NCBI GenBank assembly: GCA_965208905.1
Contig: OZ242365.1
Location: 1,920,001 to 1,984,000 of the forward strand
DNA from: Nitrosopumilaceae archaeon
Lineage (GTDB): Archaea; Thermoproteota; Nitrososphaeria; Nitrososphaerales; Nitrosopumilaceae
Direction of reading: 5' to 3'
Length of the DNA stretch: 64,000 nucleotides
In this document: positions 8,312 through 55,263 of the stretch, piece by piece
Numbering within the stretch: position 1 is the stretch's first letter
Layout: every line of letters begins with the position of its first letter
Position numbers and translations under genes: made by a program
The notes under the pieces: model-generated
Told to the model about the DNA's origin: nothing
Database searches by the model: none
What the model saw: the letters and a program-made list of their open reading frames with translations, nothing else

Positions 8312-8482
8312 GGTTCTGGGAAATCAACGGGACATGACATGTAGTGGGAAATTAGGGACATAAAAAATGAGGGATTAAGATGTTGATTCTGCGGCTGCTC
8401 GAATGAGGGTTAGGTACTTGCTATTGCCCTCGATAGTGATACCTGCGGCTTCCATGTCATGTCCCGTTGATTTCCCAGAACC
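8312..8482. mobile_element. 171-bp MITE with perfect 30-bp TIRs (IS6-like GGTTCTG ends)
   Basis: GGTTCTGGGAAATCAACGGGACATGACATG (8312-8341) and its exact reverse complement (8453-8482). The interior minus strand reads EAAGITIEGNSKYLTLIRAAAESTS*, a transposase C-terminus. Confidence 0.88.
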
Positions 8483-25679: not shown

Positions 25680-26483
25680 TCACTGCGTGTTCGTCGACAG
25701 GGAGTCCCATACCAGGTTGGCCGCGATCGTCGAGAGGAACACGGCCGCGATCGTCCGGAGGTGGCCCTCCTTCATCAGTAGGGAGATGCGGGCCCCGACC
25801 AAGCCGCCGGCCAGCCCTCCCGCCGCGAACAACAGACTCATGACCGCGTCTGTGTGGCCCAGCAGCGCGTGCATGATTATGGCGGCGGTCGACGTCATCA
25901 ATATGGCCAGCATGGAGGTGGGCGCGGCGCGCATCATTCCCATTCCCACCACTGCCACCAGGAGCGGCACGAACACCACACCGCCCCCTATACCGAAGAA
26001 CGAGGATATTATGCCCGCCATAAAGCTGGCCGAGGCGGAGAGCACCATGACGAGGCGCGCGTTGGATATGCCGTTACCGCCCAGCTTGGAACGGAGGAAT
26101 ATGTATGCGGCCGAGGCGGCAAGCACCGCGGCGAACAGTATTCCGAACATCCCCGAATCCGCGTCCGCTAGCACGATGGCCCCCAGTACGGTGCCCGGGG
26201 TGGCCAGCACTCCCAGCCTGATCGCCATGGGATAATCTATGCGCTTTTGGCGCGCGTAGGCCGCCGCCGAGCTGGCTGAGCTGGAAAGGGTGGCCGCCAG
26301 GCCGGCCGAGGCCGCCACCGGTGGGGGTATCCCCATGAGCATCAGTACGGGTGTTATGATCAGGCCGCCCGCAAGGCCTACCATGGAGGCCACGGCGCAT
26401 GCGCCCGCCGACAGGGCCACCATCCCCGCATGCGCCCACAAGTCCGGCGCGGCGGCCGACTCTATTACCAAGCCTGACTCCAC
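25680..26483 (-). CDS. TauE/SafE family (sulfite exporter-like) membrane protein
   Basis: Two repeats of G(L/I)xGGxxxxP with multiple TM helices. Lies in a visibly GC-rich segment. Confidence 0.9.
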   Translation of the reverse strand: MESGLVIESAAAPDLWAHAGMVALSAGACAVASMVGLAGGLIITPVLMLMGIPPPVAASAGLAATLSSSASSAAAYARQKRIDYPMAIRLGVLATPGTVLGAIVLADADSGMFGILFAAVLAASAAYIFLRSKLGGNGISNARLVMVLSASASFMAGIISSFFGIGGGVVFVPLLVAVVGMGMMRAAPTSMLAILMTSTAAIIMHALLGHTDAVMSLLFAAGGLAGGLVGARISLLMKEGHLRTIAAVFLSTIAANLVWDSLSTNTQ

Positions 26484-26887
26484 GGCCTATACGGCCGCCA
26501 CAATGCACACAATAACATCACATACCAAAGCGCCCCCGTATACGCAGATCCCACACCCCCCGGCGCGTATGGCGGCATGCCATCCCCGTGGCTGGCGGGC
26601 GGCTCGCCGGCCCGGATCGTTCCGGCCTCCCGCAGCAGGATGATCTCGACGGCTGCCGTGTGCCTGCAGGCGGCGCCCTTTCGCTGGACATGGTACGGGT
26701 AGTCGCAGACGATACCACCCTCGGTGATGGCCACCATGTGCCAGAATACCGGCGAGGACTCGCTGGCCACCTCCCACCGGCTCCTGTCGATGCTGCGGAT
26801 CATCTCGTCGGAGTCGGCCATCCGGACGGCCACCCTCCTTATCGCTTGGGAAGATGCCCCGTTCTTCAGGCGCTTCTTTCCGGCCAT
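26465..26887 (-). pseudogene. N-terminal SWIM zinc-finger fragment of an archaeal DDE (IS6-like) transposase
   Basis: WEVASES...CDYPYH...ACRHTAAVE is a SWIM CxC...CxH motif with one Cys>Tyr change. No DDE domain follows. Confidence 0.6.
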
Positions 26888-27134: not shown

Positions 27135-27275
27135 ATACCAGAAGTTGGAAATAGCACCCACGTTTGCAGCAGAATCATGCGCGTGGGACTGTAACGTTAT
27201 TGGGTGGGTCGTCCCGACTGTAACAAACGGAGGGTCGTGTAACATCAGGGGGCGGGTACAATACTGCGCAATTTG

Positions 27276-27500
27276 TGAGCTAGTAACTAAACGTCGCGTT
27301 TAGAACCAGATGCCGCTGAGCGACAGATGTTGGTCATATGACCATCCAGAGGAGTTTCCAAGAGACGTTCATTGTCGGCCGGGTTTTGACGCCTAGCCTG
27401 GTGACAGCCTGTACCGGCCATCACGTCACCAACTACACTGGGAGGCGTAAGTGTCGCGAGATGTATCTTTCCTCTCAAGACCATTCCAGCCTTGTTTTGC
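27276..27500 (-). ncRNA. putative omegaRNA scaffold overlapping the tnpB 3' end (element A)
   Basis: Nested stems on the minus strand: ACGCCT/AGGCGT enclosing TGGTGAC/GTCACCA, the palindrome TGGTCATATGACCA, and the hairpin TGTCGC-TCA-GCGGCA just before the TIR. Boundaries are approximate. Confidence 0.55.
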
Positions 27501-28594
27501 AGTTCGTAAACGCCTTGAACGCGCTTACTCCACTGCACTATATAAAAAGCGAAAAGTATGTTGAATGCTGCATTTACGTCCGCATGACACGATACACCGC
27601 AGTTATGGCACCTAAACTTACTACCCTTGCGCCACGTGTTTGTACTACCACACATACAGCACTGTTTTGAGGTGTTCTTTGGGTTTACCTCGATATATTC
27701 TACATTATGTTGTAGGGATTGTTGCGCAATATGGTTACGCGCCTTGCCGCACTGACTTTGTCGCATCAATCTATTCTTGTTTTTCTGACCTTCACCTTTA
27801 CTTGTCATGGTTTTGAGATTCATACCCTCCATGATGATTTTATCACACTGTCTCATTAGTTTCTTGGAGAACTTGCGCATCTTGTCCATCTGTCGATTTC
27901 CCAACTTACGGTATATGCTGTTTAGTGTATCATGCAGTCCGCGCCACTTGTGGGAGTGAAGTTTGCAACGCGACATCTTTTTCTGTATACGCGCTATGTT
28001 GCGCAGTGTGTCTTTCTCGCGTAGTGTAAGCATAGCAATTGTACCATCGGACTTTCCCACAATAAGCGTGTGCTTGCCGCCCATGTCTATACCAGCATGT
28101 ACACCGGTACAGACGCGGTCCGGGACATGCTCGCGTATCGTTACATGTAGTTCAAACTGCCGTTCCTTATCAGCATGGTTCGTAACGTCTACAATCTTGT
28201 ATGATTGTGAGTCTGATGGTAGCCTACCTTTCTGTAATTTGAATGGAATACTACACTTTGGGAAGTATACTACATCACCTTTGGACTTTTTACCCAACGG
28301 CACACTACTATACAGGGGATAAACCTCCCTGCCATACCTCACATAACTACAGTCTTCCATCTTGTGACCTTCCCGTATGGCGCCGCGAGCCCAGGCCTGG
28401 GGGATTGTTCGGCATTTGGTGGCCATCTTATTGGTGTCAAATTCCGACATACCAGCACGACGAGCCTCAATTCCCGCATTGAGCCACATATGGGATTCAG
28501 AATACATTGAGTCAAAATATCGAGTGAGTTTGGTTGATGTCTTGAGACGGTACAGTAGAGTCCTAACAACGTACTTTTCGCCTTTATACTTCAT
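27287..28594 (-). CDS. tnpB: TnpB family RNA-guided endonuclease, catalytic triad intact
   Basis: RuvC-I GIDMGG, RuvC-II IIMEGM, Zn finger CCMC/CHNC, RuvC-III HADVNAAFNI. The TAG stop lies inside the TIR. Confidence 0.93.
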   Translation of the reverse strand: MKYKGEKYVVRTLLYRLKTSTKLTRYFDSMYSESHMWLNAGIEARRAGMSEFDTNKMATKCRTIPQAWARGAIREGHKMEDCSYVRYGREVYPLYSSVPLGKKSKGDVVYFPKCSIPFKLQKGRLPSDSQSYKIVDVTNHADKERQFELHVTIREHVPDRVCTGVHAGIDMGGKHTLIVGKSDGTIAMLTLREKDTLRNIARIQKKMSRCKLHSHKWRGLHDTLNSIYRKLGNRQMDKMRKFSKKLMRQCDKIIMEGMNLKTMTSKGEGQKNKNRLMRQSQCGKARNHIAQQSLQHNVEYIEVNPKNTSKQCCMCGSTNTWRKGSKFRCHNCGVSCHADVNAAFNILFAFYIVQWSKRVQGVYELQNKAGMVLRGKIHLATLTPPSVVGDVMAGTGCHQARRQNPADNERLLETPLDGHMTNICRSAASGSKRDV

Positions 28595-28615
28595 GTGGTA
28601 TAATGAGTTCGGTGG

Positions 28616-28623
28616 TATTTAAG
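28616..28623 (-). promoter_or_regulatory. TATA box of tnpB (leaderless-type spacing)
   Basis: CTTAAATA lies 22-29 nt upstream of the ATG. The same CTTAAATACC...ATTATA-NNN-CATG layout precedes the second tnpB. Confidence 0.6.
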
Positions 28624-28700
28624 CGGTGTATTTGGTAGGTTTGTTTGCTCAACTAACTACAGTAGGCTATGATTGAACGCGACGTTTAGTTACCAACTCA

Positions 28701-28920
28701 GCAATTTACCAAAATAGGGAGGAACGAGCACAAAAAGCACCAGAAGAAAAGGATCTGGTACAACAGCAGATGGATGGTTGAAATAATAATATCCTCGTTC
28801 AAGAGGCTACTGGGCGAGGTTCTCCGGGTGGTAAAACCTGAGTATATGATTATAGGGATTGCTACAAAGATAGCCGCGTATAACAAAACTCAAGACATTA
28901 TGCGCAAGGCCACGGCGTGA
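28701..28920 (+). pseudogene. IS5 family (IS903-like) transposase C-terminal fragment, interrupted by element A
   Basis: Reads QFTKIGRNEHKKHQKKRIWYNSRWMVEIIISSFKRLLGE...KIAAYN. The frame joins GGGYNTAQF (27248-27274) across the TSD. Confidence 0.75.
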
Positions 28921-28944
28921 GGCGGACAGAACTCCGTCTCACGC
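28915..28944 (+). terminator. 12-bp stem-loop at the end of the IS5 fragment
   Basis: GCGTGAGGCGGA-CAGAAC-TCCGTCTCACGC with one G.T pair. Function not established. Confidence 0.4.
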
Positions 28945-28947
28945 GGT

Positions 28948-29373
28948 TTGGTATTCGCATGGCGACTGGACCGTCCAGATCGCGTCAGGTCACGAATTAT
29001 GAAACGCTGTCAGCCCACCGTAAATGACAAGCATAAGGGAGAGGGAGGCGCAAAGCCCGTATATGTAAAGTTTCCCGATCAGCCAGTCATGGAAGTGAAA
29101 TCCTGGACTGCCGTTCACACCAAAGCGATTGAGTGGTTGATTGATACCGGCAAAATCAGCACAGACGAGCAGATAACCATCAAGAGAGGATGGGTGTTGT
29201 ACACGTCAGATGAAGAATATGCAAAGAAGTTCTCCGCACATAAAAAGACTGGGCATGGGTGGTTTGAGTGCAATCGTAGTAGTGAAAACCATATCGATGA
29301 CATTACCAAAATATTTGAACATGCAGGTGTGGACATGGATTTCAAAATCACTATCCGACTAAATGAGGCTTAG
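28948..29373 (+). CDS. hypothetical protein
   Basis: Open frame with protein-like composition. Start uncertain (possibly 28999). Confidence 0.6.
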   Translation: MVFAWRLDRPDRVRSRIMKRCQPTVNDKHKGEGGAKPVYVKFPDQPVMEVKSWTAVHTKAIEWLIDTGKISTDEQITIKRGWVLYTSDEEYAKKFSAHKKTGHGWFECNRSSENHIDDITKIFEHAGVDMDFKITIRLNEA

Positions 29374-34265: not shown

Positions 34266-34768
34266 GTACTGTATGGTGTCTTTTTTTTGGCTTTAATTAA
34301 TTAATCGAAAAAGACTGACATTAACAGCATATCAACTAGAGACATGTACACCATACGTTACAGCTCCGCTGAAGTTAGTTGCTTGACATCTCAGGGAATT
34401 GTACATATGAGTAAACATTACTCATGCCTTTTCTTGGCGCCTTGTATAGCGGTCTACACAGCGTTGGTTTGTTGCCGCCGTACCACAAGCGCCTCTAGAC
34501 GACTTTCCCCGCCGCGGGGCAGGCTCTGCGCATAATTTTTTTGAAATGAGTACTACATCTGTTGAGTCTGTGTCATACATCTAACTGTAAAAAATTCACA
34601 GTCTAGCCGATACCATACAGAATGAACTGGTAACTAAACGTCGCGTAAAAACTCCGTTTAAGAATTACAAGATTTTCCAAAAAAGCTGTGGATTTTACAC
34701 TTTGCCTAACTAAAACATAAACTTCACATAAGATATACATGGATATACCAGTACCGCAAACTCACCAC

Positions 34769-35038
34769 ATGAAGATTCTACTAGATGAGATGTGTGATAT
34801 GGGATATGACATGCTCGAGATCAAGGGGTATGATGTGCATAGTGTGGTACGACTACGTAAATCCATGAAGGATATCGATGTGATTACATATGCACGCGAC
34901 AACCACATGATAGTAGTTACCAAAGACAACAAGTGTGGAAGGAAGTGTGAGCAGGCAGGGGTACAGCATATACTACTGGAAGATAATATACTGTACAACT
35001 TTCTCGCAAGTAGGCTTGAAGAGATGAAGGCGGACTAA
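34769..35038 (+). CDS. DUF5615/Mut7-C-like PIN-fold protein (putative toxin RNase)
   Basis: MKILLDEM...GYDV...KDIDVITYARDNHMIVVTKD pattern. Confidence 0.8.
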   Translation: MKILLDEMCDMGYDMLEIKGYDVHSVVRLRKSMKDIDVITYARDNHMIVVTKDNKCGRKCEQAGVQHILLEDNILYNFLASRLEEMKAD

Positions 35039-35099
35039 ACACTAATTCCAAGAATGACGCGTATATCTAGTCATCATACTCAAGTCGGAATAATTTCAT

Positions 35100-35254
35100 T
35101 ACACATAATAACTCACAACTTCCCTTACGATATATACACAATACACGAGAGTGAGCCGCGCGACAAAAAAACCCCTGTCGAACGTGCCGGGTTGTGTGTT
35201 GAGGGTGTGGGTAAACTAAAGGTATTGATACAAAATGCCGCGCTCTACATGTAG
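35100..35254 (+). pseudogene. C-terminal remnant of an archaeal DDE (IS6-like) transposase
   Basis: KTPVERAGLCVEGVGKLKVLIQNAALYM* resembles the TPAEAAGI..EG....TLIQNA tail also seen in the MITE at 8312. Confidence 0.65.
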
Positions 35255-35410
35255 AATTTACAGAGTTTTGGGAGAATACTGTAAAAATTTCAGTGTATTT
35301 TGGCATATATTGACGCGACGTTTAGTTACTAGCTCAATACAAAACGACTATTTTGTATATACTATATTATACGGTACATGGACATATACCATACAGTGTA
35401 AACATGTTAA

Positions 35411-52620: not shown

Positions 52621-52765
52621 TGGAATTATATACAAAAGTACACAGCCTCGGCTGTACACTCATGCCTTTTCTGACGGCTTTTTTGTATACAGTGGAGCAT
52701 AGAAGGTGTTGGCTTGTAGCCCTCCTTATGCCCCGGCCGTCTTAGGACGACGTTCCCCGCCGCCC
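52621..52765 (-). ncRNA. putative omegaRNA scaffold overlapping the tnpB 3' end (element C)
   Basis: Minus-strand stems: GACGGC/GCCGTC enclosing GGGCATAAGGAGG/CCTTCTATGCTC and GGCT/AGCC, then hairpin GTGTACAGCC-GA-GGCTGTGTAC running into the TIR. Confidence 0.55.
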
Positions 52766-53362
52766 TATACAGAATATTCCAGGCGGCATTAACATCCGCG
52801 TGGAATACCCTGGTACAATTTGTGCAAATGAATTTGTCGCGTGATATACGCGACTCTGAATCTACGTGACCACACACATGGCACGTCTGGCTCGTATATT
52901 TGGCCGATGCCCCCAACAGCGGCATGTTGTGCATCTCACACCACTGCGCAAGCTTGCGCAGGAACTCCCCAACATGGTTCTCCCGCATTGAACGGTTCAT
53001 AGCGCGTTTGTAATTCCCACCATGTGTGGTCATATCCTTTACGGAGAGCGACTCGACCACGACTGCGTCCACGCCATTAGTTATCTGCGCAATCGTCTGA
53101 TTTATGGTGTTCGCAGCTATGTTGTTGGCCTTCCTGTATAGCCGCTTAATCTGATCATTCAATATATGCCACTTCCGGCCATGCCGTGTCTTGCGGTCGC
53201 GCAAACTCTTTAGCGCGTCAATCTCCCGCAGGATTGCTCTATGGCGGGTGTTGTGTATTGTAACGTTGCCGTCCGTATCTACCGTGACGGCGAGATGCTT
53301 GCCGCCCACATCAACGCCACGCATTACACCCGTAGTATGGTGCGACTCTACCGGTTCATGTA

Positions 53363-54472
53363 TAGTTAGGTGCATAAATAACCCGACACCAGTTTTACAC
53401 CGGTAGGATTTTGTCTAAATTTCTGAACAGAATGCTGCGCGGATCAAACTTTATTTCCAGCGACTCGTATATCCGCATGATTTTCCTCCGGAAATATCTC
53501 TTGGCAGGTCGCTTGAAAGTCCGCCGTATCCTTGCCTTGCCGTTGAGCCACAGCCATTCGGCCGGATTCAGAAATGGTGAGTACGGCGGCAGAAATATTA
53601 GTTTGATGAAATCACTATTCTTTTTCAAGTATCGCTTTACGCGGCTAGAGTTGTGATATGCAGCATTATCCAGTATTACGGCAACCTTGCCGAACCGTTT
53701 TTTCGTCTTGTTCAAATATCTGATAAAGGACCTGTCGTTGGCCTTGCTAGCGGCCATATAGCATGTCTGCCCATCTAGCGTGATGCCACCGTATATGGTC
53801 TGGCGCTGGTTGCCGAGTGGCGTTTGTACCGGTATGGCATCACCGCGTGTATAGACTGCGCCGCTGCCAAACATACTTAAATTTTGGTGGCTTTCGTCTA
53901 CCATCACGAGTGTAAAACCGTCCTTTTCAAACATTTCTGCCTCCTTTTTGGTGTCTTTCTGCCAGATTTCGAGATCTTTCCTTGGTGGAATTCGGTCGGA
54001 TATCCGGGGAGTCTTCCGTATAGTGAAGCCAAGAGACCTAAGGATACGGCGCGCTTGTGATTCGCTGTATTTTATGCCGGTCTTTTTCTCAGCCAGTTTA
54101 ACAAATCCGTAGGCGGTAAATCGCTTGACACCGTTAATTATGTTCTCTAATGTGTGGCGCGGTACGAAAGATGGACGGCCAGGCCTCGCACCATCGGCGA
54201 GGCCATCCAGGCCTTTGTGGTCGTAGGCATTAAGCCAATCATATATGGTGCTACGATCGACACCAAGCACATCCGCTGCCGCAGAGATGGTATATCCTTT
54301 AATGCGCACCATGTTTACGGCTACGATACGGGCGTGCTGTGTCGCACTCTTAGTCTGTTTTAGGGCAGCCTTTATTTTTTGGGCATTAGTTTGGTTATTC
54401 ATATAATTAGTTAGTAATTTTGATCATTTATGTATTTCTAATAGAGTGTAGGATTATTTATGCTCCCAACTA
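53363..54472 (-). mobile_element. IS630 family element, intact copy 4 (1110 bp), inserted in tnpB
   Basis: Same TIRs, TA duplication at 53361-62 and 54473-74. Protein identical to copy 3. Confidence 0.96.
53395..54402 (-). CDS. IS630 family transposase
   Basis: Same 335-aa translation as 50867-51874. Confidence 0.96.
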   Translation of the reverse strand: MNNQTNAQKIKAALKQTKSATQHARIVAVNMVRIKGYTISAAADVLGVDRSTIYDWLNAYDHKGLDGLADGARPGRPSFVPRHTLENIINGVKRFTAYGFVKLAEKKTGIKYSESQARRILRSLGFTIRKTPRISDRIPPRKDLEIWQKDTKKEAEMFEKDGFTLVMVDESHQNLSMFGSGAVYTRGDAIPVQTPLGNQRQTIYGGITLDGQTCYMAASKANDRSFIRYLNKTKKRFGKVAVILDNAAYHNSSRVKRYLKKNSDFIKLIFLPPYSPFLNPAEWLWLNGKARIRRTFKRPAKRYFRRKIMRIYESLEIKFDPRSILFRNLDKILPV

Positions 54473-55112
54473 TATGGCAATATGCAGCTCAAACATGTGG
54501 TCTGATGGTTTGGTATGCTTGTCCACCCGTTTGGTGACATCAACTATCTTGAATGAGCGCATGTCCCATGATGTATTGATGGGCTTGGCGGTCTCCACCG
54601 TACCATATCCGGGGATATGTACTGTATGGCTATCTTTCCGTACAGGCGGTGTAACGGAACTAAGTATGATGCGGCCGTCTTTGCGGCGGTATGGCGCATG
54701 GCCGGAGTTGTCATCCATGACTCTCCTACACGCGACGGAGGCATCCTGTATGGCGCCCCTGCCAAACACCATAGGCAAGTCAGATACCCATGCATGTTCA
54801 GCGCGCCACTCCGTAAGCTACTTGAACATGCCGTACTTTAATGCCATCTTTGACGGCCCAAAATCATATGTATGGTAGTCATCGTCCAGCATACCTGATG
54901 TAAAATCCAGCTTGCCCGGCAGTTTGAAGGGCTGCAGGATGTCCACTACCACCCTCTCCATATATTCGCCACCAAACAAATACTCTGATACGGCGCGGTT
55001 GTACACATATCTTGACGCATGATTCGTGCGGTGCACCCACTCCGCGAACCGCACATCCCTCCGTAGCGGCACCTTAACTATTTGTATCATGATATATAAT
55101 ACGGTATACTGG

Positions 55113-55120
55113 TATTTAAG
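55113..55120 (-). promoter_or_regulatory. TATA box of the second tnpB
   Basis: CTTAAATA lies 23-30 nt upstream of ATG 55090. Confidence 0.6.
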
Positions 55121-55263
55121 GGGAGTTGTATGGACGCGATCCGTGGTTCAGGCATTAACTCTCAGAATCGGGGTTGTGTACTTTTGTATATAATTCCCAA
55201 AAGATACTACAAAACGCAGGTGGATTAAGCTTTTAGGATGTAATTTGTACAATATGTAACATA

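Follow-up and report, generated by a model that had tools for sequence, protein, structure and literature searches.

The window, by which we mean the whole stretch of 64,000 nucleotides analysed here, contains at 27276..28700 a 1425-bp element in which a tnpB gene and its probable promoter lie between terminal inverted repeats (TIRs). The downstream (right) TIR is IS6-like (27276..27300, plus strand) and would form the 3' strand of the final hairpin in the predicted omegaRNA; repeat comparison places the upstream (left) TIR at 28676..28700 (minus strand), and 23 of the 25 bases are identical between the two. The target site duplication (TSD) consists of a downstream copy, GCAATTTG (27268..27275), which would supply nucleotides 1-8 of the predicted guide, and an upstream copy, GCAATTTA (28701..28708), which is the version retained in the empty allele. 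The empty site is seen as a joint 27267-28701 in contigs of three DNA runs from three studies (X5, X6 and X7), that is in all DNA runs among the four compared at the site, the fourth being RNA. The empty allele lacks 1433 bases, equal to the 1425-bp element plus one 8-bp copy of the TSD, and because of this joint both boundaries and the 8-bp duplication are fixed without any repeat search. The 25-bp TIRs and the 8-bp TSD of the initial annotation are therefore real, except that the TSD copies are imperfect today, with seven of eight positions identical. A 16-nt TIR core, searched with at most two mismatches, occurs 10 times in 2.2 Mb; nine of these occurrences extend into a full TIR and the remaining one is a chance match.

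The tnpB gene (27287..28594, minus strand) encodes a protein of 435 amino acids with the RuvC residues D170/E256/D339 and a C4 zinc finger (C312/C315/C329/C332). It passes the NCBIfam model guided_TnpB (NF040570) with 121 bits at a cut-off of 100, and the intact tnpB first described between these ends is indeed there; ISDra2 TnpB (PDB 8bf8) is among the nearest solved structures (E 4e-12). In 45 pairwise comparisons of 10 IS6-ended copies, codons 31-350 give dN 0.16, dS 1.70 and a median dN/dS of 0.09, by which the core of TnpB is evidently kept by purifying selection. An AlphaFold model from a 27-row alignment was set aside due to its mean pLDDT of 48.7 and pTM of 0.31. The TATA-like 8-mer CTTAAATA (28616..28623, minus strand) begins 29 nt ahead of the ATG and is found at the identical distance in 10 of the 11 full-length copies; we take it to be an archaeal TATA box, presumably of a leaderless promoter. 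A scan for sigma-70 promoters gave 4 sites against 3.2 expected, with a consensus that is uninformative for an archaeon. The TAG stop codon (27287-27289) falls within the downstream TIR, as had been noted, which is incidental since both protein tail and stop position differ among the tnpB copies.

The same TIRs recur at 34623..35336 (plus strand) around a non-autonomous element without tnpB. It has its own 8-bp TSD (34615-34622 / 35337-35344; ATACAGAA/ATACAAAA, 7/8 identical), and the earlier argument that this recurrence makes the ends real holds. Within it lies an ORF for a DUF5615 PIN-like protein of 99 aa (34739..35038, plus strand; PF18480, E 6e-8), and to judge from its sequence the element is probably a deletion derivative of the cargo transposon that carries the candidate partner transposase described below.

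Further mobile sequences are present in the window. A 171-bp MITE with perfect 30-bp IS6-like TIRs (8312-8482) has identical-length copies at at least eight other sites. A tnpB of another clade at 52621-55198 has IS1595-type ends and a perfect TSD and is split by a second repeated element. Directly beside the tnpB element, 28709-29030 retains the 3' part of an IS5-type transposase gene (DDE_Tnp_1, E 0.0014) together with its right end; the tnpB element was inserted within about 8 bp of the truncation point of this remnant, from which the predicted TAM of the window copy derives.

Sister copies and a candidate transposase

The host, an ammonia-oxidising archaeon, has a genome (G000) that is a single contig of 2.21 Mb and 99.6% complete. 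Named homologues and records belong to Cenarchaeum or Nitrosopumilaceae, and many of the runs containing part of the stretch are sponge metagenomes. The close clade of the window TnpB comprises 41 proteins at E <= 1e-20. With at most four candidates scored per genome, it was found in two of nine other genomes of the genus and in none of 391 other family genomes sampled. Two metagenome scans revealed no relative, a genome scan six loci.

The host genome contains 68 tnpB-like loci, among them 11 full-length members of the clade including the window copy, to which the others are 72-83% identical. All 11 have the IS6-like upstream end and 10 the downstream end, with several TIR variants and at 11 different sites; the TSD shows at most one mismatch in seven of the 10 two-ended copies and is perfect in four of these. 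Further tnpB copies thus carry IS6-like ends with new 8-bp TSDs, as expected by the initial annotation, which had also considered that copies without TIRs and with internal IS605/IS607-type ends would point to a chance insertion into a MITE; the copies of the host genome do not bear this out. Matches to the omegaRNA core number 25 in the host genome, of which 16 end in an IS6-like TIR (one of them an inverted duplicate inside a copy), three in an IS1595-type TIR and two in an end that we take to be IS5-like, while four are decayed. In a second genome of the genus (G005) one copy of the close clade has IS6-like ends and a perfect TSD, and four others have a right end of the IS1595 type. Since the clade occurs in both kinds of ends, the tnpB cassette switches shells; the base support of the protein tree (36-55) is too weak to tell which end type is ancestral.

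Similar arrangements are seen elsewhere. In the genomes G006 and G009 tnpB lies in IS1595-type TIRs with 8-bp TSDs at 13 of about 18-20 loci fetched (L096-L113), and this arrangement is widespread across the genus. Two identical frameshifted tnpB relatives of 60% identity with IS5-like ends are located in inverted orientation at 1561.2-1562.6 kb and 1570.2-1571.6 kb of the host contig (G000:C1).

No Y1_Tnp (PF01797) and no serine recombinase (Resolvase, PF00239) matches were found in the 99.6% complete host genome by searches that were positive in control genomes. The genome does contain 13 IS6-like DDE domains above cut-off. Five transposase-bearing IS6-like elements have the same class of ends and perfect 8-bp TSDs; they are 3-35 kb long, and a TIR search within 1.8 kb of the transposases found none. 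The window TIR agrees at 17-18 of 24 positions with the ends of a 17.4-kb element (L016, G000:C1:140415-157841), compared with 10-15 of 24 for the nine other transposase ends. The intact transposase of this element (G000:C1:156690-157754) is 355 aa long, has a SWIM-like finger at its N-terminus and passes PF13610 with 48 bits (cut-off 27). Its cargo, probably a defence cassette, includes genes for a DUF499 ATPase, a DUF1156 methylase, an SNF2 helicase and a SIR2-like protein. A second copy of the left part of L016 at C1:1116873 carries the matching TSD.

In the genome G008 the exact window TIR opens an element with a DUF499-type gene, as in the L016 cargo, which also shares the subterminal sequence of 34623-35336 and contains a similar PIN-like remnant; the window TIR is therefore tied to the DUF499-cargo transposon family. 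An autonomous element with the exact window TIR was found neither in the host genome (best 18/24, or 20/24 for a sister copy) nor among 10 genomes of the genus, so the transposase at G000:C1:156690-157754 is put forward as the best candidate partner. Of the autonomous element that had been sought, a candidate with the closest ends was thus obtained, an exact match not. The earlier proposal of a DDE transposase acting in trans is nevertheless favoured by the lack of Y1 or serine TnpA matches in the host genome and by the IS6-like candidate, whose ends agree at up to 18 of 24 positions. The 8-bp flanks are swapped between copies of two transposase-bearing elements in the host genome, which would fit replicative transposition, an effect of the assembly being possible.

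One such pair are identical 3602-bp IS6-like transposons that carry genes for a DNA methylase and, possibly, for restriction (G000:C1:1337692-1341293 and 1851328-1854929); their 8-bp flanks have changed places in the way expected after a fusion of replicons or a rearrangement. A short ORF in the window (26465-26887, minus strand) contains CxYxxH...CxH, a pattern resembling the finger at the N-terminus of the IS6-like transposases; further copies of this ORF occur in other genomes of the genus, and it has no Pfam match.

Predicted omegaRNA and a one-sided flank motif

A scaffold of about 220 nt that overlaps the tnpB tail (27276..27495, minus strand) is predicted from a fall in dS, third-position identity and paired changes. 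The same 45 pairs of copies as above give dN 0.21 and dS 0.38 for codons 366-418, so that dS drops from 1.70 over the last approximately 220 nt as an overlapping omegaRNA predicts, and third-position identity among the copies climbs from about 27510. The last 225 nt of the window copy fold with -74.7 kcal/mol (z = -2.1); this value is modest taken alone, and the folded 3' region of the initial annotation is backed by its conservation across copies. An alignment of 15 copies folds as a series of hairpins with two-sided changes in seven of 43 consensus pairs.

The last hairpin is formed by the TIR and an inner strand, and the inner strand varies with the TIR variant, IS1595-type ends included. 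For 18 ends the duplex energy is -6.8 kcal/mol for cognate and -4.0 kcal/mol for non-cognate combinations, a comparison in which the inner strand is mis-assigned in three retained ends and the permutation p is too small as the copies are related. A TIR fold-back does not distinguish the downstream end, since upstream ends fold to about the same extent and both do so more than most control ends. This is probably due to upstream ends often being long inverted copies of the downstream end, and a part of the hairpin covariation may come from end homogenisation. Inspection by eye revealed no 3'-end pseudoknot in the omegaRNA region. For the predicted omegaRNA Rfam gave no meaningful match; the sole hit, to a microRNA and located beyond the element (E 0.52), is attributable to chance. 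The RNA run X15 contains a 249-nt contig within tnpB and none listed over the omegaRNA, where contigs cannot show absence. Taken from the hairpins, the collapse of dS and the flank motif described below, the omegaRNA very probably reaches the tip of the TIR, in agreement with the end that had been proposed for it.

Some copies show rearrangements in this region. Two alternative alleles of an omegaRNA segment (alignment A3, columns 46-75) are shuffled across copies irrespective of TIR type, which suggests recombination among copies. The upstream end of the sister copy L001 (G000:C1:376972-378456) repeats the 3' half of the omegaRNA in inverted orientation over 113 bp (94% identity) and could encode a second, outward-reading partial RNA. 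The IS1595-ended clade B tnpB copies L047 (G000:C1:1455295-1456704) and L039 likewise have their 3' region duplicated in inverted orientation upstream of the gene.

We compared the bases directly outside the TSDs on the tnpB strand. At 12 of 12 upstream ends, those of the 11 full-length copies of the host genome and of the IS6-ended copy from G005, these two bases are GG (5), GT (4) or AT (3). The motif is present in all eight copies with an intact TSD, and on the downstream side at only one of 11 ends. Twelve tnpB-free IS6-like control elements with intact TSDs show it at four of their 24 ends, at a background of 0.26 (Fisher p 5e-5 against controls); random flanks would share any such two-column motif with a probability of 0.004 (n=8) or 2.5e-5 (n=12). 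In a second tnpB clade, which has IS1595-type ends, a G is found at 13/13 upstream, 3/13 downstream and 5/12 control ends; within the genome G006 four of five TSD-intact copies of this clade show it. A counter-case is given by three close IS1595-ended tnpB relatives, which read TA, TA and CA in the motif register and also have a different N-terminal segment. A one-base shift of the TAM fits only two of these three and was rejected. In the tnpB clade E/F no one-sided motif could be identified among 12 copies (four in G000, eight in G009).

The dinucleotide GG/GT/AT outside the TSD is a probable TAM on the strength of this positional bias, and the TSD would accordingly act as guide seed. The window copy has GG as its predicted TAM (28709..28710, minus strand) just outside the upstream TSD, and the position of the one-sided motif predicts a guide of 16-20 nt (27256..27275, minus strand) composed of the TSD and host flank. 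No perfect 16-nt second site exists in the genome for any of 14 guides tested. The first guide base of the window copy is apparently mismatched to the empty allele.

Proposed mechanism and comparison with known systems

We are highly confident, as far as sequence can tell, of the ends, the TSD, the empty site, the absence of TnpA matches and the selection on protein and RNA. The reading that we prefer, with a probability of roughly 0.6, is that of a non-autonomous transposon mobilised in trans, in which the TAM motif is fixed by selection after insertion, either homing or retention. The tnpB gene with its own promoter and overlapping omegaRNA would lie inside IS6-like ends that are moved by a SWIM-finger IS6-like DDE transposase. 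The scaffold would end at the TIR tip and the RNA 16-20 nt past the TIR, with the 8-bp TSD as the seed and the host flank as the remainder of the guide, and the TAM would be a short purine-keto dinucleotide outside the TSD, seen as GG, GT or AT. The empty allele, which reads TAM-TSD-flank, would then be cut by TnpB, and repair from the filled allele would copy the element. In the filled allele the place of the TAM is taken at one junction by the TIR tip (CA or CC), and at the other no more than eight guide bases match, so that this allele would be spared.

The transposase would ignore the TAM, and all surviving copies would carry the motif because only insertions adjoining a TAM are driven or retained. 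Selection after insertion best explains the motif since the control elements show no bias. By an arithmetic estimate, however, a single round of sister-chromosome conversion takes the motif frequency from 0.26 to no more than about 0.41. The model therefore needs either homing in repeated rounds, which could be possible through DNA exchange between cells, or retention over a long time. A stronger version of this reading, which we put somewhat below even odds, is a homing drive on a transposon that is replicative and at no time excised. TnpB would convert the empty alleles that come in from sister cells, the two-letter TAM would be present at about a quarter of all sites, and the 3' hairpin of the omegaRNA would be rebuilt at each cassette swap between IS6-like and IS1595-type shells.

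The motif could also be made at insertion, if the TnpB-omegaRNA complex, cleaving or not, samples TAMs while tethered to the transpososome and the element is inserted in fixed orientation 8 bp from the TAM. The complete series of 12/12 and 13/13 are more than is expected of weak selection, and the motif tracks the TnpB clade and not the transposase; we nevertheless regard such steering as rather unlikely. Slightly less credit is given to the view that the IS6-like transposase itself weakly prefers such targets in one orientation; tnpB would then be mere cargo and the nuclease irrelevant to siting. The controls number only 12 elements from several TIR variants, and two of the five that bear a transposase show the motif on the upstream side of the transposase gene. 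However, control ends as a whole are at background (4/24), both ends of the tnpB-free element that shares the TIR are without the motif, and the IS1595-ended tnpB clade shows a different motif which other IS1595-ended elements lack.

We consider it improbable that homing is only restorative, as in IS605 and IS607 elements, with precise excision at some rate and restoration by TnpB from the sister chromosome. This mode is established for IS605 and IS607 according to the available part of PMC13565253, it predicts the same TAM-TSD-flank geometry, and the empty alleles of other runs could be its excision products. In the accessible text of PMC7986276, however, IS6 members transpose replicatively via cointegrates, with which the swapped TSDs of two transposase-bearing elements agree, and ancestry is the simpler account of an empty allele shared by three studies. 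That an IS1341-type tnpB element with its own IS605/IS607 ends inserted by chance into a MITE is very improbable: the genome is crowded with IS remnants and 34623-35336 shows that these ends accept other cargo, but the IS6-like upstream end in 11/11 and downstream end in 10/11 copies at 11 different sites, the missing TnpA match in the host genome and the continuation of the RNA fold into the TIR all speak against it.

The preferred reading, selection of TAM-adjacent insertions, has consequences beyond this locus. According to section 6.2 of PMC13565253, TnpB benefits only excising transposons, and the TAM co-evolves with the target preference of the transposase. Ends of an IS6-like, presumably replicative type combined with a TAM-like motif apparently not chosen by the transposase offer a natural multi-copy test of non-restorative homing. 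The one-sided motif suggests that the nuclease and not the transposase decides which insertions persist; if the homing-drive reading is true, TAM and transposase target need not co-evolve. A nuclease of roughly 350-435 aa with a permissive two-letter TAM would, if true, also be of interest as a tool.

IS1341-type solo tnpB elements (IS200/IS605, IS607) resemble the window element in their TnpB and, by the predictions made here, in an omegaRNA overlapping the ORF tail and in a guide taken from the flank with the TAM on the upstream flank. IS200/IS605 and IS607 elements, however, have neither TIR nor TSD and their transposase inserts beside the TAM, whereas the TAM candidate of the window element lies outside a variable 8-bp TSD. 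Membership in either family was rejected, as TIR and TSD are present and the host genome has no match to PF01797 or PF00239; the IS607_TnpB model gives 67 bits for the window protein at a cut-off of 350.

The IS6/IS26 family as described in the available text of Varani 2021 (PMC7986276) shares with the window element the 8-bp TSD and a short TIR with CTG at positions 5-7, and with the candidate partner the DDE_Tnp_IS240 domain; swapped TSDs are expected there of replicative transposition. The TIRs of that family have a GG tip and cTGTt, those of the window element a TG tip, no TGT and a core of CTAG/TTGG/CTGG, although sister copies with GG tips and CTGT exist in the host genome. Typical members are, in the same text, about 800 bp long, whereas the candidate partner sits in a 17-kb cargo transposon and the window element has no transposase. 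By its sequence the window element is IS6-like and not canonical IS6.

Eukaryotic Fanzors in DDE transposons, as far as the available literature describes them, likewise have a nuclease guided by RNA and packaged between TIRs and TSDs, and their guide RNA includes the TIR; the overlap of Fanzor RNA and TIR is given in the accessible parts of PMC10711439 and PMC10530073. In Fanzors the 5' TSD is part of the TAM and the 3' TSD part of the scaffold (PMC13565253), whereas the TSD of the window element apparently serves as guide seed. They also represent a different protein lineage: the DPG motif and the alternative RuvC-II glutamate, named as Fanzor signatures in the available text of PMC10711439, are absent from the window TnpB, which has GIDMGG in place of DPG and the canonical glutamate in IIMEG. 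The Fanzor-like system of the initial annotation is therefore sound as an analogy of packaging, not as an identity of the protein.

Its view of TIR/DDE capture as characteristic of eukaryotic Fanzors has to be given up, as six prokaryotic DDE-associated TnpB branches (DDE-1 to DDE-6) with inverted repeats are already described in the accessible text of Altae-Tran 2023 (PMC10691335), together with solo TnpBs that have the same ends and are mobilised in trans. As in the window element, tnpB lies there inside inverted repeats with the ORF end less than 250 bp from the element end; no TAM analysis was found in the part of that paper available. The partners named in the available texts are IS630 (PMC10691335) or ISL2, IS630 and IS1031 (PMC13565253), the candidate partner of the window element is IS6-like, and close relatives of its tnpB have IS1595-type ends, unlike the partners named. 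IS6 may be among the six branches of PMC10691335, for which the accessible text is again the basis. In the part of the literature covered, no report was found of TnpB in IS6 ends, in Cenarchaeum or in Nitrosopumilaceae. DDE-packaged TnpB is thus known; the present element appears to add a partner of IS6-like type and, beyond a variable TSD, a candidate TAM.
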